From an uncultured Anaerolineaceae bacterium (lineage in GTDB: Bacteria > Chloroflexota > Anaerolineae > Anaerolineales > UBA4823): 64,000 bases of DNA. The stretch lies in the NCBI GenBank assembly GCA_964633225.1, contig CAZWFQ010000003.1, forward strand, positions 26,064-90,063, given 5' to 3'. Under the pieces are notes generated by a model that made no database searches, was not told where the DNA came from, and was given only the letters and a program-made list of their open reading frames with translations. Both the position numbers and the translations under genes were made by a program. Of the stretch, positions 1,541-48,894 are shown in pieces (position 1 is the first letter of the stretch; every line of letters begins with the position of its first letter).

Positions 1541-2140
1541 TCAGGTTATTTTGGGCTTAAAGCGATCGTAATCGTGGGGCGTATCCAGGTCATGCAAAAC
1601 GCTGTCTGTCTGCACAGGCAAGTAAGCAATTTCAGCAGCATGTGCATTCAGAAAATCGCGCATGCTGCCCAGCCCTGGTCCAAGCAAATCTGCCCACAGT
1701 TTCTGCTCAACCAACCAGGGATGACCACGTCGCATCTGGTAGCTGGGCACAATCAGAGCGCTGGGGCTGGCATTGTATCTTTCTAACAAAGCCCTGACCA
1801 CGCTGGCCTCAATTTGCGGCTGGTCACCCAACACGATCAAAGCTGCAGGGCAGTCAACCGGCAGCGCAGCCAGCCCAACCTGTACCGACGAGAGCATCTC
1901 CCCATCGGCATAAGCCGGGTTCTCCACCAGGCGCACAGGCTGTCCTTGCAAAGCCTCTGTCACCTGCGCGCCAGCCCCACCCGTCACCACCACCACCTGG
2001 CTCAAACCGGCCTGGAGCAAAATGCTAACCACCTGACCAATGACAGTGGTCTGCCCCCAGGGCAAAACCATCTTGGGCTGGCCCATGCGCCTGGACTGAC
2101 CGGCTGCCAGCACCACTGCCGCGGCACTTGTTTGCGCCAT
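1541..2140 (-). CDS. mocA: molybdenum cofactor cytidylyltransferase (MocA-type nucleotidyltransferase)
   Basis: VVLAAGQSRRMGQPKMVLPW N-terminal NTP-binding motif, GDQP, RGHPWL and a C-terminal DLDTPHDY. This is the MobA/MocA fold pattern, and the gene is adjacent to XDH-family and yqe genes. Confidence 0.8.
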   Translation of the reverse strand: MAQTSAAAVVLAAGQSRRMGQPKMVLPWGQTTVIGQVVSILLQAGLSQVVVVTGGAGAQVTEALQGQPVRLVENPAYADGEMLSSVQVGLAALPVDCPAALIVLGDQPQIEASVVRALLERYNASPSALIVPSYQMRRGHPWLVEQKLWADLLGPGLGSMRDFLNAHAAEIAYLPVQTDSVLHDLDTPHDYDRFKPKIT

Positions 2141-2167
2141 CAGATAGCAGTCCTCATTTAGCCCTGT

Positions 2168-3553
2168 TCATCCTGCCAGCTTGCGGTAATCTTCTGGCGT
2201 GTCGATGTCCAATAGCAAGCTGACATCATGCCAGGGAAGCCACTGGACAGGATAGCGCGAAAATAACGCCCGCCCGCCCTGGTCACCGTCCAACGCCAGC
2301 AGGTCGCCAAAGGTCGTACGGTCGAACAAGACCGGGTTGCTGCGCTGTCCCCCCACCAGGGGCGCTATCAGCGGGGCCAGGCTGACACGATGCAGCTCCA
2401 CCAGAGACTGCACCAACCTGGGCGGAACATAGGGTTGATCAGCTAACATAAATATCGCCGCGCCCGTCTGCGGCGGCAGGGCCGATACCCCCACTCGCAC
2501 CGATCCACTCTGCCCGGCTTTCCAAGAGGCGTTTTCTACCACCTGAACCGGCAGCCCATCCAGGGCCTGAGACACCAACGAAGCCTGCGCCCCCACCACC
2601 ACAACCACAGGGCTCAGCCCAGCCTGTAGAGCAGTCTGCGCAGAACGGCGCACCAGCGGCACGCCATCCCAGGGCAAGAGCTGCTTAACAGGCGCTTGAG
2701 CCCCGGCTTGCCCAAAGCGTTCGGCCCCGCCCGCCGCCAGGATAATACCAGCTACTGGCTCATACGCCGCGTGGACGAACACCTCGCGGTCGGTTTCGGC
2801 CGCGTTCAACGGTGGCTGAAAACCTGCCACCACCACGCTGTGGAAGGCTTGCAGGAGCTGCGCCGCCATCCCACCGGCTTGCGCCTGGAGTAAGTCTGTG
2901 TTGGCCTGGCTGAGCAGCACGCTGCGCCGCGCTTGCGGCGGAATGTTCTTCAGGCCTCCCTGCGGGTGCACCAGCACAGCCGCCAGGGCCTGGGGGGTGA
3001 TCACCGAGCCTTCGGCCAGGCCGGATAGGGCGGCAAACTGCCCAGGACGGTGGACTGTTTCGGCAGACAGGGGCTGCCCCAGGCCGCTTAAGCCTGCCAC
3101 AACCACCACCTGCTCCACCCAGGGCAGAATAGCTGGCTCGTGTGCGGCTGGGGCCTTCAACGGGCGCATGCGCGATCCATCTGCCTCCAGCAGCAAGGGA
3201 AGGGCGTGAGCATCTGCCAGGCGCACCAATGCATCCAGGGCCTGCGGCGCAAGGCCAGGCAAACGATCCATTTCTCCCCCCGCCTCCGCCGGTCCGGTGC
3301 ACACCAGCACACCGGCTGGCAGATCTGCACCCAGGGCTTCCACCTGGGCTGCATGCTCTACCACCACATGATGATCTGCTGCCTGCACCTGCCAGGTCCC
3401 CAGGTGCGTGGTGGTGGTCAACAAGGCAGTTCGAACCTGGCCCGAGGCCACCAGGGCCTGCCCTAATTGAAAAAGCGTCGTCGTCTTGCCGCCCGCACCA
3501 ACCAAAGCCAGGCGGGCTTTTGAACTTACTCGCAAGGCGCGCCGCAAATCCAT
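2168..3553 (-). CDS. fusion protein: YqeC-like selenium-dependent hydroxylase accessory domain (N) plus MocA-like nucleotidyltransferase domain (C)
   Basis: N-terminus LALVGAGGKTTTLFQLGQAL...LLTTTTHLG matches the YqeC P-loop-like signature. From about residue 265, GIILAAGGAERFG...KQLLPW, LADQP, RSNPVLF and DIDTPEDY match a MocA-type domain. Single uninterrupted 461-aa ORF. Confidence 0.8.
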   Translation of the reverse strand: MDLRRALRVSSKARLALVGAGGKTTTLFQLGQALVASGQVRTALLTTTTHLGTWQVQAADHHVVVEHAAQVEALGADLPAGVLVCTGPAEAGGEMDRLPGLAPQALDALVRLADAHALPLLLEADGSRMRPLKAPAAHEPAILPWVEQVVVVAGLSGLGQPLSAETVHRPGQFAALSGLAEGSVITPQALAAVLVHPQGGLKNIPPQARRSVLLSQANTDLLQAQAGGMAAQLLQAFHSVVVAGFQPPLNAAETDREVFVHAAYEPVAGIILAAGGAERFGQAGAQAPVKQLLPWDGVPLVRRSAQTALQAGLSPVVVVVGAQASLVSQALDGLPVQVVENASWKAGQSGSVRVGVSALPPQTGAAIFMLADQPYVPPRLVQSLVELHRVSLAPLIAPLVGGQRSNPVLFDRTTFGDLLALDGDQGGRALFSRYPVQWLPWHDVSLLLDIDTPEDYRKLAG

Positions 3554-3554
3554 C

Positions 3555-4367
3555 TTAACTCCAAAAATTTTGGCGCAGCTCTGGGCGTGAGAGCATGGCT
3601 TCTAATACTGCCCCACCCACTGCCAGGGCCTTATCTGAAACCAGCCTGCACAACTCCGGGTCCGAACGCGGATCCACGTCACCGATCTTCAAATCCTTTG
3701 TCACCGGCACATCTGGATGGATCAACCCGCGCACCAGGCCGGCAAAAGGTGCTCTCACCGGCTGCCCCCCCACCTCTGCCAGCAGTTGGCCCGCTTCCAC
3801 CAGATCACCAATTTGAACGTGCAGGGTAATGGCACCATCCGCCGGGGCGCGCAGCACGCGCTCTCCGCGATGTTCACCCACGGCACCAGGCGTACCGCTG
3901 TCGGGGGCAGGAGCACCCTGCCACAAGACACGCCCCAGGTTGTGACCGCGCTGCGTTTCGATGACGGCGTGGCAGTTGTCGCCGGCAACAAAACCCGGCC
4001 CCAACCCAATGAATAACTGGGCGTTGTGGCGTAAGGCTTCGGGCGCTTGCTTGAGCATCCGAGCATCCACGATCACGCTGGGGTGCAGCGAATGAACCGA
4101 TTTACCATCCGGATCTACCAACACAGGGATAGCCCCTTTAGAAAACACTTGCAAGATCTTGAGCGTATCCCCCACATCGGTCACACACCGGGCAGTCAGG
4201 CCTTCGATCACCATCTCACCCTGATAAACGGCCTCGCTAAAGCTCACCGTACGGCGCACAGCCAGGGGCTGTGGCAGTTCTGTGATCGCCACGCGCAAGC
4301 CGGCCCGGTGCAGCCGCAGGGCCACCCCGCTTGCCAGGTCTCCGCCACCGCGCAGCAACACAATCAC
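3555..4367 (-). CDS. yqeB: YqeB-family selenium-dependent molybdenum hydroxylase system protein
   Basis: N-terminus [51 protein letters not shown] is the signature I recognise for the short YqeB/EF2563 family. The start overlaps the stop of the upstream XDH-family gene by 4 nt. Confidence 0.8.
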
Positions 4368-6583
4368 GGCTGCCCCAGCTTTCCCAGCCCGCGCAACACT
4401 CGTTCAGGAGTCAGCGGAAATTCATAGAACCACACCCCGGTAGCATCGTGCAGTGCAGCCATCACCGCCGGCACCAGGGGCAAGAAGGGCATTTCGCCCA
4501 TGCCGCGCGCCCCATACGGCCCAATGGGATCGGCATATTCCAGGATCAGAGAATGTACAGCATCAGGAACATCCAATACGGTGGGGATGAGGTAGGTGGA
4601 CAGGGTGGAGGTTTTCACATACCCGTCCTGCTGGACGAAATTCTCCAACACGGCATGACCGCCAGCCTGCACCACAGCCCCTTCGATCTGCCCCTGCACG
4701 TTCTGCGGGTTGACCGCCTTGCCCACATCGTCGGCCGAGATCACCTCCACAATGTGCACATGGCCAGTTTCGGTATCCACCTCCACCGTTACAGCCTGGG
4801 CTACGTAACCATAGGCAAAGTTCGGCTCCGACTTGCCCGTCTGAGGGTCAAATGGGGTGGTGCGAGGCGGGCGGTATTGGTAGGTGGCAATTGCCGGACG
4901 TTCCTCCGCCTGCCACTTGGCCAAGGCTTGCTCGCAGGCGCCCTTAATGGAATTGCCCGCCATGAAGGTCATGCGCGAGGCCGAAACACTGCCCGAATTC
5001 TGCGTGGTGGCTGTATCCGAAACGACCAACTCCACCTTGTCAAAGGGCAGCCCCAGGGTTTCGGCAGCCATCTGCGCCATCACCGTATGCGTCCCCTGAC
5101 CCACTTCAGCGCCGGCATGGTACAGCACAGCCCGTTCGATCTCAGCGCGGCCATGCAGCGCCACCGTAGCCGTGCACTGCTCTGGGGCACCAAAGGAAAA
5201 ACCGACGTTCTTAAAGGCACAAGCAAAGCCGTGCCCGCGCAAGCGCGGCGGGCGGGCGGGCTCGGCAGCCAAAGCCTGCACCCGCTCTTGCTGTTTCAAG
5301 GCACATTGATCTACCACCTGCCGGATGGTGACCCCCTTAGGCAAGGGCGTACCCACCGACAGCAGAGAACCTTCGCCTAACAAGTTACGCCGGCGCAGCT
5401 CAATCGGATCCATGCCCAGAGCTTCAGCCAGGCGATTCATCTGCATTTCAGCTTCAAAGGCGCCCTGCGGGCCGCCAAAGCCGCGGAAAGCGCCATTGGG
5501 CAGGTTGTTGGTATAGACAGCGTACGAGTCCACCTTCACATTGGGGATCTCATACGGGCCGGTGCACATCAGGGTGGCATTGCCCAACACCTTGGGAGAT
5601 GTGTACACATACGCGCCGCCGTCAGAAATCACTTCCACATCAGCCGCCAACAGTTTACCTTCTCGCGTGGCTCCCCAGCGCGCCCGCAAGATGTAAGGAT
5701 GGCGTTTGTGATGCCCAATGATCGACTCTTCCCGAGTCCAGATGATTTTCACCGGTCGGTGAATGCCGCGCTGGCTCAGCCGCCAGGCCGCCAACGCCAG
5801 CACAATCTGCACCGACATATCCTCACGACCGCCAAACGCCCCCCCAATGGCCGGATAAATGACACGCACTTGCTCTTCTGGCAGGCCTAGCGAGTGCGCA
5901 ATTTGTTCGCGGTCTTCATGCGCCCACTGCCCTGCCACCTGGACGGTCACCCGCCCTTCTTCGTCCATGTAAGCCACCCCGGCCTCGGGCTGCAAATAGA
6001 CGTGCTCCTGCGCGGGCGTGTGATACTCGCCTTCGACGATCACATCTGCTTGCGCAAAAGCGGCCTCCACATCCCCTTTGCGGATGCGGAAATGGGTAAA
6101 AGTGTTCGAATCCGGCCGGTCAACCCCTTCTCTTCCAGGGTGCAAGTGCGGTGCGCCGGGTTTCATCGCCTCCAGCACATCAGTCACCACCGGCAGGTCT
6201 TCATAATCTATCCGGATCAGGTCACGCGCCTGGGCGGCAATCTCTTCACTCTCTGCCACCACCAAAGCCACCTGGTCTCCCACAAAACGCACCCGGTCAG
6301 CATACGGGATGCTAGAGCCAGGGCCGCACAGTACCGGTTGGTCTGCCACACCCAGGCCATATTCGTTGACCGGCACATCCTTCGCAGTGAACACCGCCAA
6401 CACGCCGGGCAAGGCCTCTGCCTGGGCGGTTTCAACAGCCCGCACAATGGCATGCGGCCGGTGAGCAAAAAGGATTTTCATATAAGCCTGGTTGGGCAGG
6501 TTGATATCGCCAGGGTAAAGGGCCTGGCCCAAGACTTTGCTGCGAGCATCCACCCGCGTGACAGATTGACCAACAATTGACAT
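4364..6583 (-). CDS. xanthine dehydrogenase family molybdopterin-binding catalytic subunit (enzyme A); no Fe-S or FAD domain
   Basis: 739 aa with motifs [31 protein letters not shown] and GMGEMP (catalytic Glu). A GAGGAG RBS overlaps the stop of the upstream ABC gene. Confidence 0.92.
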
Positions 6584-6595: not shown

Positions 6596-8422
6596 TCATA
6601 AGGTGATACCTGGCTGTGCTGCCGGATCTAATAAATTATACGCCTGTTCAAGCTGGTGGCGGAACTGTTGTGTATACAGGCGGTAATATTTGCCACGCAG
6701 CCGCAGCAGTTCCGTATGACTACCCATCTCTGCAATGCGTCCATCTTCGATCACCAAGATGCGGTCGGCGCGCTTGATGGTAGACAGGCGGTGGGCAATA
6801 ATAAAGCTGGTACGGCCTTTCATCAAGTTATCCATGCCGCGTTGGATCAGGGATTCGGTCAACGTATCCACCGAGCTGGTAGCTTCATCCATGATGAACA
6901 ATTCTGGCTTTGCCAACACGGCGCGTGCCAGGCTGATGAGCTGCTTTTGGCCTACCGACAACAGGCCGCCGCCCTCCCCAACTTGTTCTTCATATCCCTT
7001 TTCAAAGCGCACAATGAAATCGTGTGCGCCGGCCATCCTGGCAGCATCTTCTACATCTGCGTCTGATGCATCCAGGCGCCCATAGCGGATATTCTCGCGG
7101 ATCGTACCCGAGAACAGGTGCGGCGTTTGCAGCACCACACCAATGCGCGATTGGATGCCATGCAGGGTGTACTCGGTATAATTGCGCCCGTTCAAGCGCA
7201 CCACACCGCGCTTGGGTTCATAGAAACGGCAGAGGAGATTGACAATCGTGCTTTTGCCGCCGCCAGTTGGTCCCACCAGGGCAATCATCTCGCCCTGTTT
7301 GACCTTGAGCGAAAAATCGCTCAGCACCGGTTTGCCGTCTTCATAGTAGAAGTCGACATGTTCGAACTCGATTTCGCCCCCCAGCGTGCCAGGGTCAAGC
7401 GCTCCGGGCTGATCGCTGACCTCAGGCTTCGAATCCAGCAAGGTAAAAATGCGTTCAGCCGAGGCAATCGAGTGCTGCATTTCAGCATACACGCGCGCCA
7501 GGTCTTGCACCGGCCACAGCATAAAGGTCAGGTAGGAAACAAAAGCCTGGATACCGCCCAATGTGATCAATCCCAACTGAGCTTGCATCCCGCCATAGCC
7601 AATGATCAGCCCCAGCGCTAACGCCGCAATGATCTGCACCGTAGGCAAGAAAAGCGCCGAAAGCCAGGCTGCCCGGTAGCTGGAACGGTACATCTCACCT
7701 GTTAACTGGTCAAATTCTTTCAAATTCTCAGCTTCACGGCCCAAGGCCTTGACCACCCGCACCCCGGTAATGTTCTCATTGTAAGCGCCGGTGATCTTCG
7801 AGTTGACCTTGCGCGCATTGCGAAACTCCAGCAGGATGCGCTTGCGGAACTGTATGGCGATCACCACCAGCACCGGCATAACGGCCAACACGATCAAAGC
7901 CAGCCGCCAGTTGATCACCAGCATGAAGATGGTAGAGGTGCCGATGTTCATCACCGCCCAGGTGCTGTCAATCAAGCCCCAGGTCACCAGGTCAGAGATG
8001 CGCACCGTATCTGAAGTCACACGGGCCATCAAACGCCCGACCGAAGTCTGGCTATAATAAGAAAGCGACAGGTCTTGCAAATGGCTGAACATGGCCCGCC
8101 GCAGATCGTATTGAATGCGCTCACCCAAGACGCCTGACATGTAAATGAATGAAAAGACGCAAAGCGCCTGCACCACCTGCAGCCCCGCATAGATCATGAC
8201 CAGGCGCGCCAGGGCGTGGGTATCGCCAGCCACAATACCCTGGTCGACGATGTCCTTGTTCAGGTAGGTGAAAAACGCATCCACAACCGATGTGAGGGCA
8301 ATCATGCCCCAAAATCCTGCCACCCAACGCCAATGCGGCCAGGCCAGGCTGATGATACGGCGCAAGGTTGCGCCGGTCATCTTACCGGTATAATCTTCCT
8401 CTTCGAGATCAATATCTGCCAC
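6596..8422 (-). CDS. ABC exporter, fused permease/ATPase half-transporter (heterodimer partner 2)
   Basis: Six-TM type-I exporter N-domain. Walker A GPTGGGKST, signature LSVGQKQ, Walker B LFIMDEATS. Confidence 0.92.
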   Translation of the reverse strand: MADIDLEEEDYTGKMTGATLRRIISLAWPHWRWVAGFWGMIALTSVVDAFFTYLNKDIVDQGIVAGDTHALARLVMIYAGLQVVQALCVFSFIYMSGVLGERIQYDLRRAMFSHLQDLSLSYYSQTSVGRLMARVTSDTVRISDLVTWGLIDSTWAVMNIGTSTIFMLVINWRLALIVLAVMPVLVVIAIQFRKRILLEFRNARKVNSKITGAYNENITGVRVVKALGREAENLKEFDQLTGEMYRSSYRAAWLSALFLPTVQIIAALALGLIIGYGGMQAQLGLITLGGIQAFVSYLTFMLWPVQDLARVYAEMQHSIASAERIFTLLDSKPEVSDQPGALDPGTLGGEIEFEHVDFYYEDGKPVLSDFSLKVKQGEMIALVGPTGGGKSTIVNLLCRFYEPKRGVVRLNGRNYTEYTLHGIQSRIGVVLQTPHLFSGTIRENIRYGRLDASDADVEDAARMAGAHDFIVRFEKGYEEQVGEGGGLLSVGQKQLISLARAVLAKPELFIMDEATSSVDTLTESLIQRGMDNLMKGRTSFIIAHRLSTIKRADRILVIEDGRIAEMGSHTELLRLRGKYYRLYTQQFRHQLEQAYNLLDPAAQPGITL

Positions 8423-8433
8423 AGTATGTTTCC

Positions 8434-10293
8434 TCAGCCGGCTGCTGCGCCAGCCACTTCTTTTTCCACTTCTTCGTCAATGCGCGTCTGCAAATCATAA
8501 ATCTGGCGATACATACCCTCTTGCGCTAACAGTTCGGCATGTGTGCCCTTCTGCACGATGCGGCCCTTATCTAACACCACGATCAGATCCGCATTCATCA
8601 CGCTTTGGATGCGGTGAGCAATGATGAAGGTCGTCCGGCCCACATTCAAGCAGCGCAGCGCATCACGAATGAAGGCCTCTGTTTCGGTATCTACCGAGGA
8701 AGTCGAGTCATCCAGGATCAGGATACGCGGATCTTTGAGCAGGGTGCGGGCGATCGTCACGCGCTGCTTCTGCCCACCGGAAAGGGTGACGCCCTTTTCG
8801 CCAACCATGGTCTCGTATCCCTGCGGAAAGGTCAGGATGACATCGTGGATGGCAGCCATCTGGGCCGCATCTTCGATTTCGGTGCGAGGCATCTCTCGCC
8901 CCACCCCGTAAGCGATATTCTCGCCAATCGAGCGCGAAAACAAGAAAGGCTCCTGTTCCACCGTGCCAATCTGGTTGCGCAAAAACTCAGGGGCATAATC
9001 CTTCAGTTCCACCCCATCCAGCTTGATGCTGCCGGTGGAGTAATCGTAAAAACGCGGCAGCAAGTTGATCAAGCTGGTCTTGCCAGAACCGGTGGAGCCC
9101 AACAATGCCACCACCTGCCCTGGTTGGCAGGTGAAACTGATATCCTGCAAGATCGGTTCGTTATCGTCTTCGTAAGAAAAGCCCACCTTATCGAAAACAA
9201 TCTCGCCCTGCACCGGTTTCTCCGGCTGGTAGCGACCCACCGTCAGGGCTTCGCGCGGCTGCTTGATGATCTCGCGCACGCGCCCGAACGAAACCAGGCC
9301 GGTAGAGGTCTGCACAATGAGGCGGCCCAGGTTACGCATCGGCCAGATCAGCCAGCCCACAAGGCCAGAGTAGGCCATGTAAGTGCCTACGCTGATCTCG
9401 CCATCAATGGCCATCAGGGCAGCCGCCAGGAAGCCGCCCAGCAGTTGAAAGCCGCACACAATATCTGAGATCGGCCAGAAGAGCGAGTGCATACGTGTCA
9501 GGCGGCGGCCACGCACAAACTTTTCCCAGTTGTCCTTTTCAAATTTCTTACGCTCGTATTCCTGGCGGGCAAAGGCTTTAACCACCCGCACACCGGTCAG
9601 GTTTTCTTGCAGGGTAGTTGAGAGGATGGCCTCTTGCTCTTGATAAGCCTCGTACACCTTGGTGAGACGTTTAAAGAACCACACCGAGGTCAGGATAATG
9701 ATCGGCATCGCCACAATCGAAAGCAGTGCCAACTTCCAGCTCAACTGAAATATCGCCACAAAGTTGATCGTAAAGAGCAGTGCCACCCGCCCAATGCCAA
9801 TGGCCTGGTCGCTGAAGAAGCGCCGCAGCGCGTCCACATCCGATGTACAACGCTCGATCAGATCACCGGTGGGAGTTTTCTTATGATAGCGAAAATACAG
9901 GCGCTGAATGTGATCAAAGAGGTAATTCCGCAAGCGCCGGGTAATGTTCTCTGCTGTGTAAGCGGCCAGCCTGCCCGACAGGAAACTGAAGCTGCCCTCG
10001 ATGGCTGCCAGGCCCAAAAAGCCCAAGGCCACCAACACCAGGGTAGCTCTCAAGTTACCTGGGATCAGATACTGCTTCTGCCCCAATATCGTATCGATAA
10101 AGTAACTTAGCAGCAGATAGGTGATCGTCTTAGCAGTTGCCGAAACAGCCAGACTGGCAGTTGCCCCCAGGTAATGCCAGCGGTAACCGCTCATCATACG
10201 CCACAACCCTAACAGGCGGTTTGGAACCAGAGTCTCTTGAAAATCAAACGTACGTGCTGGGGTAGACAAGCAATCCTTCCTTAGCCAAAACAA
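8434..10293 (-). CDS. ABC exporter, fused permease/ATPase half-transporter (heterodimer partner 1)
   Basis: Walker A GSTGSGKTS, signature LSGGQKQR, Walker B ILILDDSTS. The true start may be the TTG at 10269, which is preceded by AAGGAAGGA. Confidence 0.9.
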   Translation of the reverse strand: MFWLRKDCLSTPARTFDFQETLVPNRLLGLWRMMSGYRWHYLGATASLAVSATAKTITYLLLSYFIDTILGQKQYLIPGNLRATLVLVALGFLGLAAIEGSFSFLSGRLAAYTAENITRRLRNYLFDHIQRLYFRYHKKTPTGDLIERCTSDVDALRRFFSDQAIGIGRVALLFTINFVAIFQLSWKLALLSIVAMPIIILTSVWFFKRLTKVYEAYQEQEAILSTTLQENLTGVRVVKAFARQEYERKKFEKDNWEKFVRGRRLTRMHSLFWPISDIVCGFQLLGGFLAAALMAIDGEISVGTYMAYSGLVGWLIWPMRNLGRLIVQTSTGLVSFGRVREIIKQPREALTVGRYQPEKPVQGEIVFDKVGFSYEDDNEPILQDISFTCQPGQVVALLGSTGSGKTSLINLLPRFYDYSTGSIKLDGVELKDYAPEFLRNQIGTVEQEPFLFSRSIGENIAYGVGREMPRTEIEDAAQMAAIHDVILTFPQGYETMVGEKGVTLSGGQKQRVTIARTLLKDPRILILDDSTSSVDTETEAFIRDALRCLNVGRTTFIIAHRIQSVMNADLIVVLDKGRIVQKGTHAELLAQEGMYRQIYDLQTRIDEEVEKEVAGAAAG

Positions 10294-10383
10294 GGGTGAA
10301 ACAGCCTGCCAGCGATATCCAACATCGCCAGCCCTGTTTCATCCTTGTTGATTGGATTAATATGGTACGGGTAAAACTCAGGT

Positions 10384-11124: not shown

Positions 11125-11226
11125 TTTAGCCTCCTATGTTGAAGATAATCGTTTGCCGATTTTAAGTATATCACTATTGGCCCCCTTTTATGACACTTGA
11201 CACATATCCAAGCCCACTTATTGCAC

Positions 11227-11256
11227 TTGACACAGCCTCCCCAATCATTTTACACT
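11227..11256 (+). promoter_or_regulatory. sigma-70-like promoter of the aminotransferase gene (TTGACA, 17/18 nt spacer, TACACT)
   Basis: TTGACA at 11227-11232 and TACACT at 11251-11256. Only 7 nt separate the -10 box from the ATG at 11264, and there is no RBS, so the transcript is predicted to be leaderless. Confidence 0.6.
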
Positions 11257-11263
11257 AACAGGT

Positions 11264-41118: not shown

Positions 41119-41129
41119 CACAGCCTCCA

Positions 41130-41762
41130 TCAATCAAATACGGTCGGCAAGGTAGAGTCATTGTACGCCGCAAAGACATCCCGCAGAATACGCGGTGGGG
41201 TGCGCTCGCCCGAGAGCTCGCCTGGGATATCTTGCTGTGCAAAGAAAGCCACTTCAGTTGTCTCATTACTGGGTGTAGGCTGACCGCTTAATAAATCACA
41301 CAGAAAGACAAGCTTGAAGGCATGGAATAATTCTACCGGCCCAAAGCGGTTGCAGTCATAGATGCCCACCACCCGCCGGGCCTTGACTTTGAACCCGGCT
41401 TCTTCCCACACCTCTCGCTCTGATGCTTCAGAGGGCACATCGCCCACATCCGCCCAGCCGCCCGGCAGAGTCCAGCCGCCATCTATCCGCTCGCGCACCA
41501 TCAGCAGTTTGCCATCTTGGAAAACCGCCCCCCGCACATCGATGCGCGGGGTAGCATACCCAATCTGGGCCTTAAAAATGCTGCTCAAGGCCGCAAAATC
41601 CAGGCCGGCATACTCGCTGATCATCTCAGCCGCAATCTCATGCAAGCGCTGGTAGCGTTGGCGTTGAAAGTCGTCTTTGGCGTAATTGTTGCCGGTTTGG
41701 GCCAGTGCCTGAATCTCACGCGCCCATTCCAGCCAGCGAGGAGTGGTCACCGGATCGGTCAT
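41130..41762 (-). CDS. NUDIX hydrolase with N-terminal Nudix_N-type helical domain
   Basis: Nudix box GGWADVGDVPSEASEREVWEEAGF (G-x5-D-x7-REVxEEAGF). N-terminal WLEWAREIQALAQTGNNYAKD. Both ends overlap neighbouring genes by 4 nt. Confidence 0.88.
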   Translation of the reverse strand: MTDPVTTPRWLEWAREIQALAQTGNNYAKDDFQRQRYQRLHEIAAEMISEYAGLDFAALSSIFKAQIGYATPRIDVRGAVFQDGKLLMVRERIDGGWTLPGGWADVGDVPSEASEREVWEEAGFKVKARRVVGIYDCNRFGPVELFHAFKLVFLCDLLSGQPTPSNETTEVAFFAQQDIPGELSGERTPPRILRDVFAAYNDSTLPTVFD

Positions 41763-44557
41763 AGGGCTGCCAATACCTGCTCCTGATCCACCGGTAACCT
41801 GTCGACACGCACACCCACGGCGTGATAAATAGCATTGGTGATGGCAGGCGTGGTGGGAATACTGACCAGTTCACCCACTCCCTTGGCGCCATAGGGACCT
41901 TCAGCCGTAGGGTGCTCAACCACAATCGAGACGATCTCGGGCGTCAGCTCGATCGAAGGGATGCGGTAGCGCGCCAGGCGATCAGTGATGACCTGGCCAT
42001 TTTCTACCACAAACTGCTCGGTGAGGGCATTTCCCAGGCCCATCATGGCCCCGCCTTCCACCTGCCCCTGCAAACCCAACGGATTGAGCGCGCGCCCCAC
42101 ATCGTTGGCGGCGATCAGGCACAGCACACGTACTTCACCGGTCAGGGTATTCACTTCCACCTGGGCTGCCTGGGCGGCAAAGCCATAGGCAAAGTGCATC
42201 TTGCCGCCTTCGCCCAGCGGATTGGTGGTTGGGGCCCAATACTCATACAGTGCGCGCGGCTGACGGCCTTCGGCCTTGAGCAGCGCCACCACCTCGCCCA
42301 AGGGCAGGCGTTGATCGCCCACCTGGGCCAACCCTTCCACAAAGCGCACTTGCTCTGGGGGGCAGTCATACTTTTCCGCCAGGCTGCTGGCAAGCGCCTG
42401 GCGCAACGCCTGGGCGGCATGCCGGGCAGCATTGCCCGTCACATAGGTCTGGCGTGAAGCCGTAGTAGGGCCGCCGTCGGGCGTCAGGTCTGTATCCATC
42501 ACCAGCACCCGCACCCGCCCCGGCGCCACCTGAAACTCTTCTGCCACGGTCATTTGCAAGATGGTCACCAAGCCCTGGCCCAGCTCAGCCGACGAGGTGC
42601 GCACTTCCAAAGAGCCATCAGGGTACAATTCTACTTCGGCCCCGGCCTTATCAGGCGCGCCCCCGCCCAGGCCAGTATTCTTATAGGCCACAGCAAAGCC
42701 CCAGGCCCGCCGTTTGTGCGGCTCGCCAGCCACCGCCTGCGCCTTGAAAGGCTGGTCGCCAGCCCGGCGGCGCATTTCAGCTTCAACACGCTGGATGCAC
42801 TCCAACAGTCCAACACTCTCGTCCAACACCTGGCCTGTATTGGTCACGCTGCCCACGCGCAGCGCATTCATGCGCCGTAATTCCACCGGGTCCAGGCCAA
42901 GCTTCTCCGCCAGCATGTCCATCATGCTCTCAACGGCAAAGGCCGATTGGGTCACGCCAAAGCCTCGGAAAGCCCCCGCAGGCGGGTTATTGGTATACAT
43001 GGCATAACAATCGGCGCGGGCATGGGGTGATTCGTAAGGCCCCGAAGAATGGGTGGTGGCGCGCGTCAGCACTTTTTCGCCCAGCGAAGCATAAGCCCCG
43101 GTATCGCCATACAACTCCGTCTCAACAGCCGTCAGCGTCCCATCCTTGCGCGCCCCCACCTTCACCCGGATCTGGGTGGCGTGGCGCTTGGGGTGCACCA
43201 GCAGGCTCTCGTGCCGGTCAAACAACAGCTTGACCGGCCGGCCTGTGGCCTGGGCCAATAGCGCGGCGTGGATCTGCCCGGCAATATCTTCCTTACCGCC
43301 AAAACCACCCCCGATCAATTGGCCGATGATGCGCACCCGATCTTCTGACCATCCCAGGGCGCGTGCCACCTGGTTGCGGTCAGCATATGGGATTTGAGAA
43401 CCAACATACACTTCCATACGCTGAATCCCAGCATCATGTTCGTCTGGAACAAGACGGGCAATGCTGCACTCAGGTTCTAAAAATGCGTGGTCGGTAATGG
43501 CGGTATAGAAGGTATGTTCCATCACCACGTCTGCTTGAGCAAAGCCTTCGCTCACGTCGCCCTTGCGCACCTTGATGTGCTTGAGCAAGTTGCCGCCAGC
43601 GTGCAGGCTGGGGGCATCGGCCTGGCGTGCCTGCACTGGGCCAGCGACCACCGGCTGGAGGTCGTATTCTACCGCGATCAACTCCAGCGCTTGCAGGGCA
43701 ATCTCGCGCTGCTCAGCAGCAACAATGGCAATCGCATCCCCCACGTAACGCACCCGCTCACCTACCCCCACCATCACTGGCCAATCGGGGATCACAATGC
43801 CGTGCTGGCGCTCGCCGGGCAGGTCGGCGGCAGTCAACACCGCCGCCACGCCGGGCAAAGCGCGGGCCTTTTCCACATCAAGTGTCTTCAAAAAGGCGTG
43901 CGGCACACCCGCCCGCTTGACACAGGCATGCAGCATGCCCTCAAATTGCACATCATCCGTGAACCTGGCAGCCCCAGTCACTTTTGCCACCGCATCTGGG
44001 CGGGGCTGGTGGTGACCAATGGTAGCATATGCGTCCGCCTGGCCCGAATTTGCCACGTTGGGAGGCGGCACAGGCTCGCCCGTGCGCAGAGCATAGGCCG
44101 CCGCCTGGATGGCCCGCACAATAGTGGGGTAACCGGCACAGCGGCAGAGAGTATCTTTGAGGGCATGGCGGATCTCAGCCTCACTAGGGTCGGGCTTGGC
44201 CTGTAACAGTGCGCCAGCGGTCATGATCTGCCCGGGGATGCAAAAGCCACACTGCACCGCACCATGCAGCACAAAGGCCTGCTGAAGCGGGTGCAGGTCT
44301 TCAATGCGGGCATCTGCGCCCGCTACAGCCGACAGCCCTTCAATGGTCAGCACGTCTTTGCCTTCCACCCGCGCAGCCGGGTAGCTGCAAGACAGCACTG
44401 GCAGCCCATCCACCAACACAGTACACGCGCCACACTCAGCTTCGTTGCAGCCGATCTTGGTGCCGGTCAGGCCCAGGCGATTGCGCAGCAAATCTGCCAG
44501 CATCTCGCCAGGCAAAGGATCCAGGTTATATGCGGTTCCGTTAACGTGGAAGTTCAT
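41759..44557 (-). CDS. XDH-family fused [2Fe-2S] plus molybdopterin-binding catalytic subunit (enzyme C, XdhD/YgfN-like)
   Basis: GCNEAECGACTV, QCGFCIPG and CRCAGY. Then TDHAFLEPE, GGGFGGKED, KRHAT, FRGFGVTQ and GVGELV. The start overlaps the upstream FAD-subunit gene by 17 nt. Confidence 0.92.
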   Translation of the reverse strand: MNFHVNGTAYNLDPLPGEMLADLLRNRLGLTGTKIGCNEAECGACTVLVDGLPVLSCSYPAARVEGKDVLTIEGLSAVAGADARIEDLHPLQQAFVLHGAVQCGFCIPGQIMTAGALLQAKPDPSEAEIRHALKDTLCRCAGYPTIVRAIQAAAYALRTGEPVPPPNVANSGQADAYATIGHHQPRPDAVAKVTGAARFTDDVQFEGMLHACVKRAGVPHAFLKTLDVEKARALPGVAAVLTAADLPGERQHGIVIPDWPVMVGVGERVRYVGDAIAIVAAEQREIALQALELIAVEYDLQPVVAGPVQARQADAPSLHAGGNLLKHIKVRKGDVSEGFAQADVVMEHTFYTAITDHAFLEPECSIARLVPDEHDAGIQRMEVYVGSQIPYADRNQVARALGWSEDRVRIIGQLIGGGFGGKEDIAGQIHAALLAQATGRPVKLLFDRHESLLVHPKRHATQIRVKVGARKDGTLTAVETELYGDTGAYASLGEKVLTRATTHSSGPYESPHARADCYAMYTNNPPAGAFRGFGVTQSAFAVESMMDMLAEKLGLDPVELRRMNALRVGSVTNTGQVLDESVGLLECIQRVEAEMRRRAGDQPFKAQAVAGEPHKRRAWGFAVAYKNTGLGGGAPDKAGAEVELYPDGSLEVRTSSAELGQGLVTILQMTVAEEFQVAPGRVRVLVMDTDLTPDGGPTTASRQTYVTGNAARHAAQALRQALASSLAEKYDCPPEQVRFVEGLAQVGDQRLPLGEVVALLKAEGRQPRALYEYWAPTTNPLGEGGKMHFAYGFAAQAAQVEVNTLTGEVRVLCLIAANDVGRALNPLGLQGQVEGGAMMGLGNALTEQFVVENGQVITDRLARYRIPSIELTPEIVSIVVEHPTAEGPYGAKGVGELVSIPTTPAITNAIYHAVGVRVDRLPVDQEQVLAAL

Positions 44558-45491
44558 TACCAGCCCTTTCCCAGGCTAACGCCAGCACCTGGCGCAGCAG
44601 CACACCCGCCAAATGACGGCGGTATTCTGCCGTGGCGCGCTGCGGGCTGGTGCGGAAGCGTGCCTCACCCAACAAGGCTTCGTTGGCTTTTGCCAGGGCA
44701 GGCTCGTCCAACGGCTGTCCGAGCAACGCTTGCTCGGTTTGCAAGGCGCGCAAGGGCTTCAAGCCGGCAGGACCGATCGCAATTCGCACGCCCGCCAGGC
44801 GGTTGCCATCGCGCTGCAGCCAGGCCGCCAGGTTCAACACAGGCAGCGCCACCCCTTGGGGGCGCATCACCCGCCGGAAGGCTGATGCCTGGCCCGGCTG
44901 GCTCAAGGGCAGCCAGAAGCCCACCAACAGCTCCCTGCTTTCGGTCAATATCGAGCGCCCCGGCCCCAGGTAGAGATCGGTGATAGGCACAGTGCGCCTG
45001 CCGCTGCACCCAGCCAGTTCAGCCTGGGCATCCAGGGCGTGGAGAGCAATGCTGCCATCCGCAGCCGGCAGGGCATGCGCCACATTGCCGCCCAGGGTCG
45101 CCACGTTGCGCACCTGCGGCCCCCCCACCTGCCCGCAAGCCTCCACCAAAGCCTGGGCATGTTGGCACACCAGGGGCGCATCCACCAGGCGGTGCAAGGG
45201 TACAGCCGCGCCAATGAACAGCCGCTCACCGGTCACTTCAATGGTTTTTAGCTCAGGGATTTGGGTAATGTCGACCAGGGTGTCGACAGCAGCCTGGCGT
45301 CCCTGCTGTAACTCTAACAGCAGGTCGGTTCCACCAGCTACCAGGCGCGCCGGGCCGCTGGCTTTTGCCAGGGCTTGTAAGGCGTCTTCGATACTATGAG
45401 CAAGATAGTAACAGTTCCAGATGGTCATCGAATCGGCGAGATGGCGGTACTTTTCGACGGGCCGGCTGCCCGACGCCGGCGCAAGATTCAC
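44541..45491 (-). CDS. XDH-family FAD-binding subunit (enzyme C, YgfM-like)
   Basis: LVAGGTDLLLELQQG FAD motif and a CO_deh_flav_C-like C-terminus. The start is uncertain (GTG at 45491 or ATG at 45428). Confidence 0.85.
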   Translation of the reverse strand: MNLAPASGSRPVEKYRHLADSMTIWNCYYLAHSIEDALQALAKASGPARLVAGGTDLLLELQQGRQAAVDTLVDITQIPELKTIEVTGERLFIGAAVPLHRLVDAPLVCQHAQALVEACGQVGGPQVRNVATLGGNVAHALPAADGSIALHALDAQAELAGCSGRRTVPITDLYLGPGRSILTESRELLVGFWLPLSQPGQASAFRRVMRPQGVALPVLNLAAWLQRDGNRLAGVRIAIGPAGLKPLRALQTEQALLGQPLDEPALAKANEALLGEARFRTSPQRATAEYRRHLAGVLLRQVLALAWERAGNELPR

Positions 45492-45533: not shown

Positions 45534-45583
45534 CCGAAAACGAGTGTGAGACTGGTTGCGCATCGTCTCACACTCGTTTTCGG
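45534..45583 (-). terminator. 19-bp perfect-stem hairpin overlapping the last 5 codons and the stop of the SARP-type regulator gene
   Basis: CCGAAAACGAGTGTGAGAC, a 12-nt loop, then GTCTCACACTCGTTTTCGG. On the minus strand it is followed by ATTTAGATTATAAT. Confidence 0.45.
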
Positions 45584-48500
45584 GAGGCCACGATCTCTGC
45601 CAGGCTGAGGCACATGCCGCGGGCCTGGGCATCTGCCAACCGTTCAGCCGGGATCTTATCACGCAGGTGTTCGAGCAAACCGCTGGCCTTTTGATGGGTT
45701 TGCTCGTCGAGGCCGGTCTGCTGCAGGGCAAAGGACAGCAGTTCAACTGTACCTTCCATCTGTCCATCCAACGACAATGCCTCTGCAATCCCACATAATA
45801 CATCCACTGCCACGGGGGTCAGTTCAATCTCCACCGCCAGGGCCAGGGCTTCATCATAATATTGGCAGGCGCGGCCAGGATTGCCCCGCGTCACCCACAA
45901 GTTGCCCAGGCTGTTCAAAGCATACAGGATGCTTTTCCGATCGCTTGCCTGGCGGCTCATTGCCAGGCTCTGGTCATAGTGCAGCATGGCATTCTCGTAT
46001 TCGCCCAGTGCTTTCTCCACATCCCCCAGGTGCTTGAGGGTGCTGGCAATGCCCCACTGAAAGCCAATTTCCCGACAAATTGCCAGGCATTCCAGGCGCA
46101 GGTCACGCGCCCGTACAAATTCTTCGTGGATGTAGGCGATAATGCTCATGTTCTGCAGGCAGCGTGCCATCCCAGACCGGTCACTGATTTCGCGGAAGCA
46201 TTCCAGGGCCTGCTTGAAATACGCCTCTGCCTGGTCATAATCTCCCAATACTCCATTCAAGACACCCAGGCTGTTGAAGGCCATCGCCATACCCCAGGCA
46301 TTTTCCAGGCGGCCGTACAGCGCTAATGCCTGCATGGTAAGGGCTTTGGCCTGCTCCATATCGCCACGCATGCGGCTAACGTTAGATAGGGTATCGAGCA
46401 GCAGCGCAGCATTAAACAGGCTGCCAGCCTTTTCGTTTGCAACACGTGCTTCATCCAGGTATTGTTGGGCCAGGGCCAGGTCGCCGTGGTTAAACGCCAG
46501 GTCGCCTAACAGGCGCAGCCCCAGGGTGATCTCATGATAATCTTCCCTCAGACGCAGCAGTTCCAGGCCGCGCGCCAATAAAGCCTGGGCCTGGTCACCG
46601 TGGCTCAGCCTGGCCGCGAACATGCCCTGGCGCAGCATCAGGCTGCCCAGCAACCCTTCCATCCCATCCACCCGGTGGCGCCCCTTTTCCACCGCTGCCA
46701 CAGCCGCAGCAAACATTTCCAACCCCTCTTGGAACCAGGAATGGATCTCGTAGAATTGGCCCAGGCCGTTCAGCACAATCACCATCTGTGCAGACTGCCC
46801 CAGGGGGAGCATTTCTCCTTCCGGCACCCCCAAGGCAAGCATCGCCGTTCCCCACTGCCAGGCAGCGCGAATATTTTGGATATTAGCCCCGATGACTGCC
46901 AGGGCATGTTTTTGCTCCTTGCCCACCAGGGCCGGGCCATGCTCTGCCAGGAGATCAAAATAAAACGCACCATGCGCCTGCTGCACAGCCTGGTAATCCG
47001 CCGGGTCAGCTTGTAAATGCTCTTCAGCAAACTGCTGCACAGCCCGGTGCAGGCCGTAATTTCCGGCTGCCAGGCGGCGCACCAGGCTGCGCTCCACCAA
47101 ACCCGTCAAAACCTCCCCGCTGGCTCCTGCCACCTGGGCAGCCGCCTCTGCAGAGAATTCGCCCCGAAACACCGCCAGGCGTGCAAACACAGCCTGTGCC
47201 ACCGGCTCCAGCAAATCCCAGGAATGGTCAAATGCCGCCCGTAAACTGCGGTGGCGCTCGGGCATGTCGCGCAAGCGGGCGGTGGCAATATCCAGGCCCT
47301 GCGCCAACTGTGCAGCAATCTCTTCACAAGATTGCACCCGTACCCAAGAGCCCACCAACTCGATCCCCAGAGGCAGGCCTTCCAACAGTTGGCAAATGCG
47401 CAGCACAGGCAGGTATTCTCTTTGCAGGTCAAAACGCGGCTGGATGCGCCGCGCCGTCTGCTCAAATAAGAGCAGGGCGCTGTGCTCCCCCACCGGTACA
47501 CCGGCAGGGGTTCCATCTTCTGGGTACGCCAACCCTTCCACTTCCAACACGCACTCCAGGCGCAGGCTCAAGGGTTGGCGCGTGGTGGTGATGATCTTAA
47601 GCCCAGGGGCGCGTTCTAACATATCGGCTACCAACCCGGCTGCATCCAACAAGTGCTCGAAGTTGTCCAGCACCAACAAGATCTGCTTTTCTTGCAAGAA
47701 ATTGAGCAGTTGAGCTTCTGGGGCTTCTCGGCTGTAAAACCGGAGCTGTACGGCTTCCGCAATCGCCGGAGCCACCTGGCTGGCAGATGTCAATGGCGAT
47801 AATTTCACCAGGTAGACCCCGTTCTCAAACAACCCCACCTGCGTCGCAGCCGCCTCCAAAGCCAGGCGCGTCTTGCCGCTGCCGCCCGGGCCCACCAGGG
47901 TCAGCAGGCGGCAAGAGACATTTGCCAGGCTATCTGCCATGGCGTCTAATTCGGTCACCCGCCCAACCAGGGGCGTGGCTGGCTGCGGCAGGTTTTTCAA
48001 AGAGGGCCGGAACCGCGGCCGCAGCAGTTCATCATTGACCGCCGCAGGTGCAGCCCCGGTTTGCGCCAGGTGGGCGCGGATCGCAGCCGACAATCGCACG
48101 GTTTCTGTCGCCGGCTCTACCCCCATCTGCTCGCTCAGATAACGGCGGCAGACAGTAAACTGCGCCTGTGCTGCCGCCCACTGCCCATCCAGGGCCAGCA
48201 AACGCATCAACTCACTATGGGCCTGCTCTTCCCAAGGTGCCAGGTTGATCAATTGCGCTGCATCCTGGGCCGCCAGGGCAAATTCAGCCCGCCGCTCGTG
48301 GTATTCTACCAGGCGCGTCAGCACCTCGATCTGCTGCCGGCTAAGCTCCTCGCGCAGCATGCTGGCCCACTCGTCAAACAAGGGCCCCCCGCTCAAGTAG
48401 AACTGGTCCAGGAACCCGCCCCGGTAAAGCGCAGCTGCCTTCCGCAGGCGGCGAAAATTGACCCCTTGCTGGCCTCCCCCGCGCCCCTTACTGCTTTGGT

Positions 48501-48894
48501 AATGCGCCAATGCAGCCTGCACATCTTCTCGGTAAGCCCGCACATCCAGCCAATGATCGCAGTCGGGATTGAACTGGACGCTGCCATCTGGCTGGACCAG
48601 CAGAAATGGCCGGTTGGCAGGCGTGCCATCCCCCCCCTGCGGCACAGCACCGGCATCCTCCTTCAACGCCTTGCGCAAATTTGAAAGCGCCTGCCGCAAG
48701 CTGTGCAGAGCCTTATCTTCCGGTTGGTCTGACCACAACAATCCAGCCAGGTGTTCTCGGCGGTGAGAGCGCTGATTTTCAACCATCAGGTAGATCAATA
48801 AAGCCCTAACCTTATCAGAAGCAAAGGCTTGGAGCGGCCGCCCATCCAATTCCGCGGCGAAGGAACCCAGGCAGGTCATGCGCAGCATTGTCAA
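45568..48894 (-). CDS. AfsR/SARP-type STAND transcriptional regulator (winged-helix DNA-binding domain, BTAD, NB-ARC ATPase, TPR)
   Basis: N-terminus CLGSFAAELDGRPLQAFASDKVRALLIYLMVE...LWSD...LRQALSNLRKAL. BTAD (WLDVRAY..., YRGGFLDQF). Walker A GPGGSGKTRLA. Many TPR-like repeats. Start is the TTG at 48894 or the ATG at 48888. Confidence 0.9.
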   Translation of the reverse strand: MTMLRMTCLGSFAAELDGRPLQAFASDKVRALLIYLMVENQRSHRREHLAGLLWSDQPEDKALHSLRQALSNLRKALKEDAGAVPQGGDGTPANRPFLLVQPDGSVQFNPDCDHWLDVRAYREDVQAALAHYQSSKGRGGGQQGVNFRRLRKAAALYRGGFLDQFYLSGGPLFDEWASMLREELSRQQIEVLTRLVEYHERRAEFALAAQDAAQLINLAPWEEQAHSELMRLLALDGQWAAAQAQFTVCRRYLSEQMGVEPATETVRLSAAIRAHLAQTGAAPAAVNDELLRPRFRPSLKNLPQPATPLVGRVTELDAMADSLANVSCRLLTLVGPGGSGKTRLALEAAATQVGLFENGVYLVKLSPLTSASQVAPAIAEAVQLRFYSREAPEAQLLNFLQEKQILLVLDNFEHLLDAAGLVADMLERAPGLKIITTTRQPLSLRLECVLEVEGLAYPEDGTPAGVPVGEHSALLLFEQTARRIQPRFDLQREYLPVLRICQLLEGLPLGIELVGSWVRVQSCEEIAAQLAQGLDIATARLRDMPERHRSLRAAFDHSWDLLEPVAQAVFARLAVFRGEFSAEAAAQVAGASGEVLTGLVERSLVRRLAAGNYGLHRAVQQFAEEHLQADPADYQAVQQAHGAFYFDLLAEHGPALVGKEQKHALAVIGANIQNIRAAWQWGTAMLALGVPEGEMLPLGQSAQMVIVLNGLGQFYEIHSWFQEGLEMFAAAVAAVEKGRHRVDGMEGLLGSLMLRQGMFAARLSHGDQAQALLARGLELLRLREDYHEITLGLRLLGDLAFNHGDLALAQQYLDEARVANEKAGSLFNAALLLDTLSNVSRMRGDMEQAKALTMQALALYGRLENAWGMAMAFNSLGVLNGVLGDYDQAEAYFKQALECFREISDRSGMARCLQNMSIIAYIHEEFVRARDLRLECLAICREIGFQWGIASTLKHLGDVEKALGEYENAMLHYDQSLAMSRQASDRKSILYALNSLGNLWVTRGNPGRACQYYDEALALAVEIELTPVAVDVLCGIAEALSLDGQMEGTVELLSFALQQTGLDEQTHQKASGLLEHLRDKIPAERLADAQARGMCLSLAEIVASRKRV

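Follow-up and report, generated by a model that had tools for sequence, protein, structure and literature searches.

In the described reductive pathway of anaerobic urate breakdown, the molybdenum hydroxylase XdhD, together with YgfM, reduces urate to 2,8-dioxopurine, which is then reduced by YgfK, or by UacX in Clostridia, only when this step is coupled to ring hydrolysis by SsnA (PMC12507026). The hydroxylases are SelD-dependent, and YqeB and YqeC occur in every degrader (bioRxiv 10.1101/2025.04.24.650524). The former study, published in 2025, also noted an association of SsnA with a luciferase-like oxidoreductase (LLM) and predicted that an LLM using the deazaflavin F420 is the 2,8-dioxopurine ('yanthine') reductase of Chloroflexota; it gives no experiment on the Chloroflexota enzyme. 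We describe here a gene cluster in a 64-kb stretch of DNA from an uncultured Anaerolineaceae bacterium (contig CAZWFQ010000003.1; hereafter the window, in which positions are counted from the first letter). It displays the same SsnA-LLM association, and we propose the same role for it: with a probability of roughly 60%, the window carries the Anaerolineales variant of the selenium-dependent reductive urate (2,8-dioxopurine) pathway, in which an LLM supplied with reduced F420 (F420H2) would replace YgfK.

Open reading frames (ORFs) of the window were profiled against Pfam and NCBIfam, with curated equivalog cut-offs applied. As a comparison set, one genome per species was scanned with an SsnA alignment, which gave 80 species-level loci, nearly all from Anaerolineae, whose SsnA proteins are 63-70% identical to that of the window, with one at 95%. 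All ORFs of these loci were mapped onto the window proteins for gene-order counts, and the flanks of SsnA were viewed over 10 kb. Further loci (L076, the L084-L118 range and others) were inspected for context, and the purine region of E. coli K-12 served as reference for identity and order. Homologues of SsnA assign the window to Anaerolineales, phylum Chloroflexota; among cultured bacteria of this group, Ornatilinea apprima P3M-1 has the cluster (L084). One contig labelled as a Methanosarcinales archaeon (L070, JAIWHF010000079.1; 11 kb, coverage about 0.56) holds an Anaerolineales-type SsnA-F420-LLM-XdhD cluster with SsnA at 64%; this contig is probably mis-binned.

The core of the cluster is a series of genes running from ssnA to the LLM gene on the minus strand, as do all cluster genes described below unless stated otherwise. 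The SsnA amidohydrolase (39784-41133) scores above the cut-offs of two family models (NF005540, 518 bits against 444; TIGR03314, 501 bits against 455) and is 36% identical to E. coli SsnA; its product probably has 444 residues, the ORF starting with TTG and the recorded product (P0001) beginning five codons later. Downstream lie genes for NpdG/Fno, an NADPH-dependent F420 reductase (39042-39722; TIGR01915, 186 bits against a cut-off of 150), and for three enzymes of F420 biosynthesis: the F420-0:gamma-glutamyl ligase CofE (38239-39030; TIGR01916, 277 against 181), the 2-phospho-L-lactate transferase CofD (36907-37866; TIGR01819, 311 against 257) and the guanylyltransferase CofC (36291-36902; TIGR03552, 183 against 105). 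Between cofE and cofD is a conserved ORF of 120 residues (37877-38239) that matches no Pfam or NCBIfam family and has similarly placed homologues in L004, L005 and 11 of the 80 loci; judged by eye, its sequence (DRPKGS...YPLDYGY...DGGGVDVWVG) may resemble an inorganic pyrophosphatase motif. The LLM gene (35203-36249; true product 332 residues) closes the series.

This arrangement is shared by most related species. After SsnA, NpdG is found in 79 of the 80 loci and CofE in 74, while CofC is present in 61, CofD in 53 and the LLM in 62; when the count is limited to the 60 loci that extend 6.5 kb or more downstream of SsnA, NpdG, CofE and the LLM occur together in 54. The upstream side varies: the gene immediately before SsnA is NACHT/HEAT-like in 33 loci and a NUDIX gene in 19, 14 have a divergent M20 dipeptidase there, and 7 the gene of a 932-residue hydroxylase. 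That the F420 block is kept beside ssnA while the flanks vary indicates neither an accident of one genome nor simply inherited synteny. Gene clustering exceeds chance, and the same core order comes up in 80 species-level genomes. A first-pass annotation of this DNA, made from its letters alone, had named juxtaposition in a single genome as the outcome that would speak against linking the F420 genes to the purine genes; the 79 loci with npdG after ssnA show the contrary. In most other Anaerolineales (about 35 loci, L027-L075), a PNPOx-like gene and a nitroreductase gene resembling the C-terminal domain of FbiB stand between cofE and cofD. The window has neither, which may reflect a different route to saturated F420-0.

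The LLM is probably of the F420 class. Its top 16 NCBIfam matches are all F420 LLM families, none reaching its cut-off; against the equivalog of Mer, the methylene-tetrahydromethanopterin (methylene-H4MPT) reductase, it scores 168.5 bits, below the cut-off of 348.7 (TIGR03555). Among solved structures, Mer comes closest (E = 1e-36), followed by Fgd and Adf, all F420 enzymes. We propose that this Mer-like protein may be an F420H2-dependent reductase that replaces YgfK or UacX. A tblastn search at 1e-5 found no homologue of YgfK in the window, nor was one found within 10 kb of SsnA in the 80 loci; Pfam scans of the window ORFs found no UacX-type DHO_dh-family domain. The LLM is also the best conserved of three proteins compared, with a median identity of 83% over 62 loci, against 66% for SsnA and 49% for NpdG, and the best 120 database matches are all at least 87% identical.

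Other genomes place this LLM clade in similar company. A 276-kb contig labelled Blastocatellia (L076, DAOLKO010000006.1, 9995-15736) encodes an SsnA (66%) and an LLM (76%) with one small ORF between them, no cof genes, and CN_hydrolase and Amidohydro_3 genes following; this pair may result from a horizontal transfer out of Anaerolineae, accompanied by candidate ureide-cleaving enzymes. A search of representatives retrieved full-length sister clusters of this LLM at 42-50% identity; the sister-clade LLMs of L115-L118 are 42-48% identical. In L115, the order is LLM, SsnA-like amidohydrolase, YgfM-like, XdhD-like (48% identical to the XdhD-like enzyme of the window), SsnA-like, XdhC, YqeB, YqeC and LLM. 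L116 has two LLM genes and an SsnA-like gene beside genes for a xanthine dehydrogenase-family (XDH) large subunit with its Fe-S and FAD subunits, a HyuA-like protein (39% identical), a PALP protein and NpdG. In L117 and L118, the LLM gene adjoins a FAD-FeS-XDH-amidohydrolase operon, and in L114 a series NpdG-CofE-nitroreductase-CofD-CofC-LLM is followed by a DUF6909 gene and a YqeC-MocA fusion. Taken together, these contexts show that the LLM clade recurs with molybdenum hydroxylases, SsnA-like amidohydrolases and selenium markers.

Three molybdenum hydroxylases, named here by their lengths in residues, accompany the core in the window. XDH932 (41759-44557), with a fused 2Fe-2S domain, is nearest to the 'selenium-dependent xanthine dehydrogenase' family (TIGR03311, 787 bits against a cut-off of 830). 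Its partner is a 316-residue XdhB-like FAD-binding subunit, FAD316 (44541-45491), which was assigned by Pfam, has XdhB as best NCBIfam match below cut-off, and occurs with XDH932 in 18-19 of the 80 loci. XDH1030 (24703-27795), also with a fused 2Fe-2S domain, is XdhD-like: its best NCBIfam match is TIGR03313 (716 bits against 1102), and it aligns over its full length with E. coli XdhD (37% identity, 593 bits) in the same fused Fe-S architecture. Close to it is the gene of a short, 261-residue FAD subunit, FAD261 (29443-30228), which has FAD_binding_5 only, finds YgfM-like TIGR03312 as best NCBIfam family (87 bits against 241) and is 29% identical to E. coli YgfM. XDH1030 is present in 26 and FAD261 in 32 of the 80 loci. 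The third large subunit, XDH739 (4364-6583), is PucD-like (TIGR03196, 582 bits against 784). A fused FAD and 2Fe-2S subunit of 470 residues, FAD/FeS470 (18981-20393; Pfam), lies far from it in the window; the two are contiguous, with a 139-residue ORF, in L012, L018, L084, L092, L095 and L102-L104, and we infer that they are partners.

All three large subunits possess the catalytic glutamate (E697 in XDH739, E896 in XDH932, E978 in XDH1030) in a GE(P) motif aligned to E710 of E. coli XdhA, a position that we take to be the equivalent of bovine E1261. At two substrate-site positions, those of bovine E802 and F914, Glu and Phe are found in XDH739 and XDH932, which is the xanthine-type pattern; XDH1030 has Gln and Tyr, like E. 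coli XdhA and XdhD. Because of these active-site residues and of the best NCBIfam families, all below cut-off, XDH1030 with FAD261 would be the best candidate for the step from urate to 2,8-dioxopurine, and XDH739 and XDH932 the candidates for purine hydroxylation.

The pairing of XDH739 with FAD/FeS470 also follows from the layout of the locus. As the first-pass annotation had stated, 24 consecutive minus-strand ORFs run from 48894 down to 16546 with a maximum gap of 129 nt; after recomputation, 20 of the 23 gaps are shorter than 60 nt or are overlaps. A second minus-strand block (11124-1541) has gaps of at most 90 nt. It had been thought to belong with the first, and this is borne out by other Anaerolineales, where the two are contiguous: we therefore regard the two blocks as one ancestral cluster, split by an insert. 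The usual order after the LLM is 4HBT, FAD261, XDH1030, DHH-CBS (in some loci), XdhC, FAD/FeS470, the 139-residue protein, XDH739, YqeB, YqeC-MocA and MocA, and it is found uninterrupted in L012, L018, L084, L092, L095, L098 and L102-L104. In the window and in one subclade (L087, L088, L110-L112), about 12 kb are inserted between the 139-residue protein and XDH739, comprising a DUF6909 gene, plus-strand RsmF, GNAT and aminotransferase genes, an FHA or other small gene, and an ABC exporter pair. With the split undone, the orphan large subunit XDH739 of the second block pairs with the orphan FAD/FeS470 of the first.

The part of this insert that divides the two halves (6596-16731, about 10 kb, both strands; Pfam) holds a 61-residue ORF, RsmF, GNAT, a 522-residue protein, a class-III aminotransferase (plus strand), FHA and the ABC exporter pair. 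This segment is common to the same subclade and does not occur between the 139-residue ORF and XDH739 in L012, L018, L084 and L092; it is probably unrelated to the pathway. The 61-residue ORF, at the end of the first block (16546-16731), contains cysteines (CETCP...WCPGW) and has no family match. In L112 (15404-16297) and L111 (15383-16300), an EamA-family transporter gene takes the place of the FHA gene upstream of the ABC pair; that of L112 has a weak match to purine permeases (PUNUT).

The first-pass annotation had attributed selenium-cofactor markers to the hydroxylases, and YqeB and YqeC both exceed their family cut-offs. The 270-residue core of YqeB (3555-4367) reaches 322.6 bits against a cut-off of 220 (TIGR03309), has no Pfam match, and is 45% identical to residues 270-524 of E. 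coli YqeB. An XdhC-family maturation factor (20383-21279; Pfam) is 39% identical to residues 2-259 of the same protein. The 541-residue E. coli YqeB thus corresponds to two window genes 16 kb apart, an XdhC-like gene for its N-terminal half and the YqeB core for its C-terminal half. YqeC is fused to a MocA-like cytidylyltransferase domain (2168-3553), its N-terminal part scoring 156 bits against a cut-off of 73 (TIGR03172); the fusion is also seen in L087-L095 and L114. A stand-alone MocA-like NTP transferase (1541-2140) forms the conserved end of the cluster, and follows YqeC-MocA in L087, L089, L092, L094, L095 and L106 as well. For both MocA-like domains, TIGR03310 is the best or near-best match, below its cut-off of 186 (154 bits for the stand-alone protein, 134 for the fused domain). 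Of the features that mark a selenium-dependent molybdenum hydroxylase system, YqeB, YqeC and an XDH large subunit with the catalytic Glu are therefore present.

Two more proteins recur in this part of the cluster. The 139-residue ORF (18504-18923) has no family match; it directly follows the FAD/FeS subunit in every locus examined and precedes either the 739-residue large subunit or DUF6909. Two hydrophobic stretches, seen by eye, make it look like a two-helix membrane protein. The 572-residue DUF6909 protein (16777-18495; PF21850, 777 bits) is widespread in Anaerolineales, always comes just after the 139-residue protein in one subclade (L110-L112), and is directly beside YqeC-MocA in the distant L114 (14803-16551). 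From these contexts, DUF6909 may have some part in the hydroxylase or selenium system. All the genes named in the first-pass annotation were recovered with Pfam or NCBIfam; only the PNP fold that it gave to DUF6909 stayed unconfirmed. The AlphaFold2 model has a mean confidence (pLDDT) of 65.5 with a poorly modelled C-terminal half, and its Foldseek matches, mostly AMP nucleosidase, UP, MTAN and PNP, are not significant (best E = 0.17). Alignment to E. coli AMP nucleosidase (Amn) with hhalign gave a probability of 0.7%, and a sequence search of the PDB gave no match.

From gene identities and an order conserved across 80 species, we infer substrates, reaction directions and the use of F420 by the LLM as follows. 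XDH932 with FAD316, and XDH739 with FAD/FeS470, would hydroxylate purines to urate, which XDH1030 with FAD261, the XdhD/YgfM-like pair, would reduce to 2,8-dioxopurine. Standing in for YgfK or UacX, the Mer-like LLM would dearomatise 2,8-dioxopurine with F420H2, and ring hydrolysis by SsnA would pull this unfavourable reduction forward. NpdG would regenerate F420H2 using NADPH, and CofC, CofD and CofE would make F420 from the deazaflavin FO. XdhC, YqeB, YqeC-MocA and MocA would mature the selenium-bearing molybdopterin cytosine dinucleotide cofactor. The purine oxidation island of the first-pass annotation is consistent with this in its first term, purine catabolism; 'oxidation' is less apt, the reductive urate pathway providing the better fit. 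More tentatively, and at slightly less than even odds, we suggest that Anaerolineales make F420, or complete it from salvaged FO, mainly for this one step of purine catabolism, a Mer-like F420H2-dependent 2,8-dioxopurine reductase acting in tandem with SsnA.

Several observations weigh against the reductive urate reading. The window has no homologue of HyuA, YgeW, YgeX, YgeY or the carbamate kinase YqeA, and a HyuA-like gene occurs in only 2 of the 80 loci; with downstream uricolytic genes missing near the cluster, the fate of the SsnA product is left unaccounted for. The M20 peptidase (52984-54357) and the DUF1385 protein paired with it were considered as YgeY and rejected, since the peptidase belongs to a dipeptidase family (NF006053) and the pair travels with housekeeping genes. 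HyuA, YgeW/UacY, YgeY as well as YgeX may be encoded elsewhere in the genome. No selD was found in the 64-kb window, no radical-SAM FO synthase (CofG/CofH or FbiC) among its ORFs in Pfam scans, and no purine, xanthine or molybdenum cofactor riboswitch in an Rfam scan at gathering thresholds (0 matches). No NCBIfam equivalog cut-off is reached by the LLM or by any of the three hydroxylases, so that family membership does not fix their substrates. Finally, in 16 of the 47 full-length loci the 10 kb around SsnA contain neither an XDH nor a FAD subunit; the link of SsnA with the F420 genes is thus tighter than that with the hydroxylases.

The missing downstream genes, these 16 loci and the lack of FO synthase and selD make another heterocyclic substrate for LLM and SsnA a serious rival. 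Under that hypothesis, which we hold to be unlikely, the SsnA-LLM-F420 unit is real and acts on a different N-heterocycle (for instance another oxopurine, a pterin or lumazine, a pyrimidine-like or an FO-related compound), with hydroxylases as occasional neighbours of the SsnA-to-LLM core. The nearest characterised relatives of the LLM indeed act on a pterin derivative, methylene-H4MPT, and the SsnA-like amidohydrolases next to sister LLMs are only 28-32% identical to SsnA. The window SsnA, however, passes both SsnA models, the XdhD/YgfM-like pair is the commonest downstream partner and stands in E. coli order, and L116 joins the LLM with HyuA-like, PALP and XDH genes. A related candidate, SsnA serving FO or F420 biosynthesis, was rejected as the principal explanation: the protein passes the SsnA equivalog models and XdhD/YgfM-like genes adjoin it in E. 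coli order.

We may also hypothesize that the cluster is a mosaic, a housekeeping F420 operon lying beside purine genes by shared ancestry and without functional coupling. Close relatives do share unrelated flanks (Beta_helix, DUF1361, S-methyltransferase), and cofCDE operons with npdG and an LLM gene are common in F420 producers (PMC8498797). Scans of the window for sigma-70 promoters and terminators lend no operon support either, with counts near those of shuffled controls and no unit-defining intergenic terminators. Yet 79 of 80 species, with SsnA at 63-70% identity, retain the adjacency even as neighbours change on both sides, and the cof genes are bracketed by SsnA and the LLM, both catabolic. 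SsnA and LLM genes are only one small ORF apart, free of cof genes, in L076, and an SsnA-like gene directly follows the LLM gene in L115. Together with the absence of YgfK from the window and the 80 loci, these facts render the mosaic explanation quite improbable.

A single super-operon of about 45 kb, with F420 as direct redox partner of its three hydroxylases and with cyclic-nucleotide signalling as an intrinsic module, as the first-pass annotation had it, would agree with the 24 tightly spaced co-directional genes and with the kinase and cyclase genes inside the block. It is very improbable, given that each hydroxylase has FAD and 2Fe-2S subunits of its own, that plus-strand housekeeping genes interrupt the blocks, and that almost all related clusters lack the kinase, the cyclases, the SARP regulator and the NPP-like enzyme, most species being without signalling genes and the cluster by implication working without them. 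As the hydroxylases carry these subunits, F420 is unlikely to be their redox partner; most likely it serves the LLM. The signalling genes are limited to close relatives or to one subclade.

The accessory genes are as follows. The SARP-type regulator at the head of the first block (45568-48894; weak Trans_reg_C, BTAD, NB-ARC and TPR in Pfam), next to FAD316, is found elsewhere only in the same-genus loci L001, L002 and L006. A hybrid histidine kinase (MASE11-GAF-HisKA-HATPase-REC-REC-Hpt) and a REC-adenylate/guanylate cyclase occupy 30212-34543 (Pfam), the cyclase gene at 30212-31285, and are shared only with L001, L003, L004 and L006. Kinase, REC-cyclase and SARP regulator are each found in one of the 80 loci, a same-genus locus, and the kinase-cyclase pair also in L004. 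An NPP-like phosphodiesterase (27799-29427; Phosphodiest/Metalloenzyme in Pfam) occurs otherwise only in L005, L021, L111 and L112, that is in one of the 80 loci (L021), and a cyclase-AAA_16 protein (22570-24666; Pfam) only in L110. Being nearly absent from related clusters, all of these genes are insertions and not conserved parts; like the ABC and FHA genes and the plus-strand genes, they are later arrivals and local regulators at most.

Three other genes recur. A NUDIX hydrolase with a Nudix_N domain (41130-41762; Pfam), ADP-ribose pyrophosphatase-like, is directly upstream of ssnA and present in 19 of the 80 loci; its closest solved structures are 3q1p and 3o8s (E = 1e-48 to 1e-44). A hotdog-fold 4HBT protein (34582-35073; Pfam) follows the LLM in 27 of the 80 loci. 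A DHH-CBS-DHHA2 protein (21200-22546; Pfam), resembling CBS-type family II pyrophosphatases and with a manganese-dependent diphosphatase as best NCBIfam match below cut-off, occurs in 8 of the 80 loci and in L098, L111 and L112.

Beyond the cluster, the segment 55311-61417 encodes a 1523-residue seven-transmembrane hybrid histidine kinase (PAS, three GAF, REC, REC, Hpt) followed by a PAS-GAF-GGDEF diguanylate cyclase; counted with the kinase and cyclases of the cluster, these make the region unusually rich in signalling genes. On the plus strand, 52487-55306 holds genes for a protein with a MOSC domain, for an M20 dipeptidase and for a DUF1385 protein. Other genomes often have the M20/DUF1385 pair divergently placed next to ssnA (at least 14 loci), but the pair is part of a housekeeping synteny block. 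The window contains no tRNA genes.

In digesters, sediments and wastewater, Anaerolineales rank with the most abundant bacteria. If the proposed pathway is correct, anaerobic urate breakdown in these bacteria would need both a selenium-molybdenum cofactor and a deazaflavin, and a third, non-homologous solution to a thermodynamically hard step would stand beside YgfK and UacX. F420 would thereby gain its first role in nucleobase catabolism, and a biosynthesis module for F420 would for the first time be seen inside a catabolic operon. Outside Actinomycetota and methanogens, little is known of what F420 does physiologically; the cluster provides a testable role, F420H2 as hydride donor in the dearomatisation of 2,8-dioxopurine. 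Work to dissect selenium-cofactor maturation could also profit from the split YqeB, the fusion of YqeC with MocA and the recurrence of DUF6909.

The first-pass annotation knew of no such locus, a statement now out of date, as PMC12507026 had noted the SsnA-LLM link. The central F420-LLM/SsnA prediction has thus been in print since 2025, which limits the novelty of our analysis. In the literature that we searched, this is the only publication to connect F420 with dioxopurine, and its main text and one supplementary file make no mention of embedded npdG and cofC/D/E genes, of order conservation or of a split cluster; in a 2021 review of F420 (PMC8498797), the words 'purine', 'xanthine' and 'uric' each have zero occurrences. 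New here are the embedded npdG and cofC/D/E genes, which are conserved almost throughout the order, the exceptionally high conservation of the LLM, the split-cluster reconstruction and the recognition of the signalling genes as insertions. To these we add the division of YqeB between two genes, the fusion of YqeC with MocA, the recurrence of DUF6909 and of the putative 139-residue membrane protein, and the absence of the downstream genes.

Three known systems can be set beside the window. In F420 operons of Actinomycetota, Chloroflexota and archaea (PMC8498797), CofC, CofD and CofE are encoded with NpdG and an F420-class LLM in one block, as they are here, where the LLM is probably of that class. 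The F420 blocks of relatives often include the FbiB-C-like nitroreductase and the PNPOx-like gene; the window block differs from known F420 operons in sitting between two purine-catabolic genes, with no FO synthase in the cluster. Mer, an F420-dependent enzyme, is the closest characterised homologue of the LLM, sharing the TIM-barrel LLM fold family and, under the proposed role, a reduced N-heterocycle as substrate. The window LLM nevertheless forms a distinct clade, and its context is XDH and SsnA genes, not C1 metabolism.

The closest system is the reductive urate cluster of E. coli and Clostridia (PMC12507026; bioRxiv 10.1101/2025.04.24.650524), which shares with the window additional XDHs, YqeB, YqeC, XdhC and probably MocA. 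The window departs from it in lacking nearby hyuA, ygeW, ygeX, ygeY and yqeA and in its extra signalling and transport insertions; where E. coli has a single YqeB, the window has separate XdhC-like and YqeB-core proteins, and its YqeC is fused to MocA. Instead of YgfK or UacX, the LLM, Fno and cofCDE genes are found between ssnA and the ygfM-like gene. The relative order is nonetheless the same, ygfK-ssnA-ygfM-xdhD in E. coli corresponding to SsnA-[NpdG-CofE-CofD-CofC-LLM]-(4HBT)-FAD261-XDH1030 in Anaerolineales.

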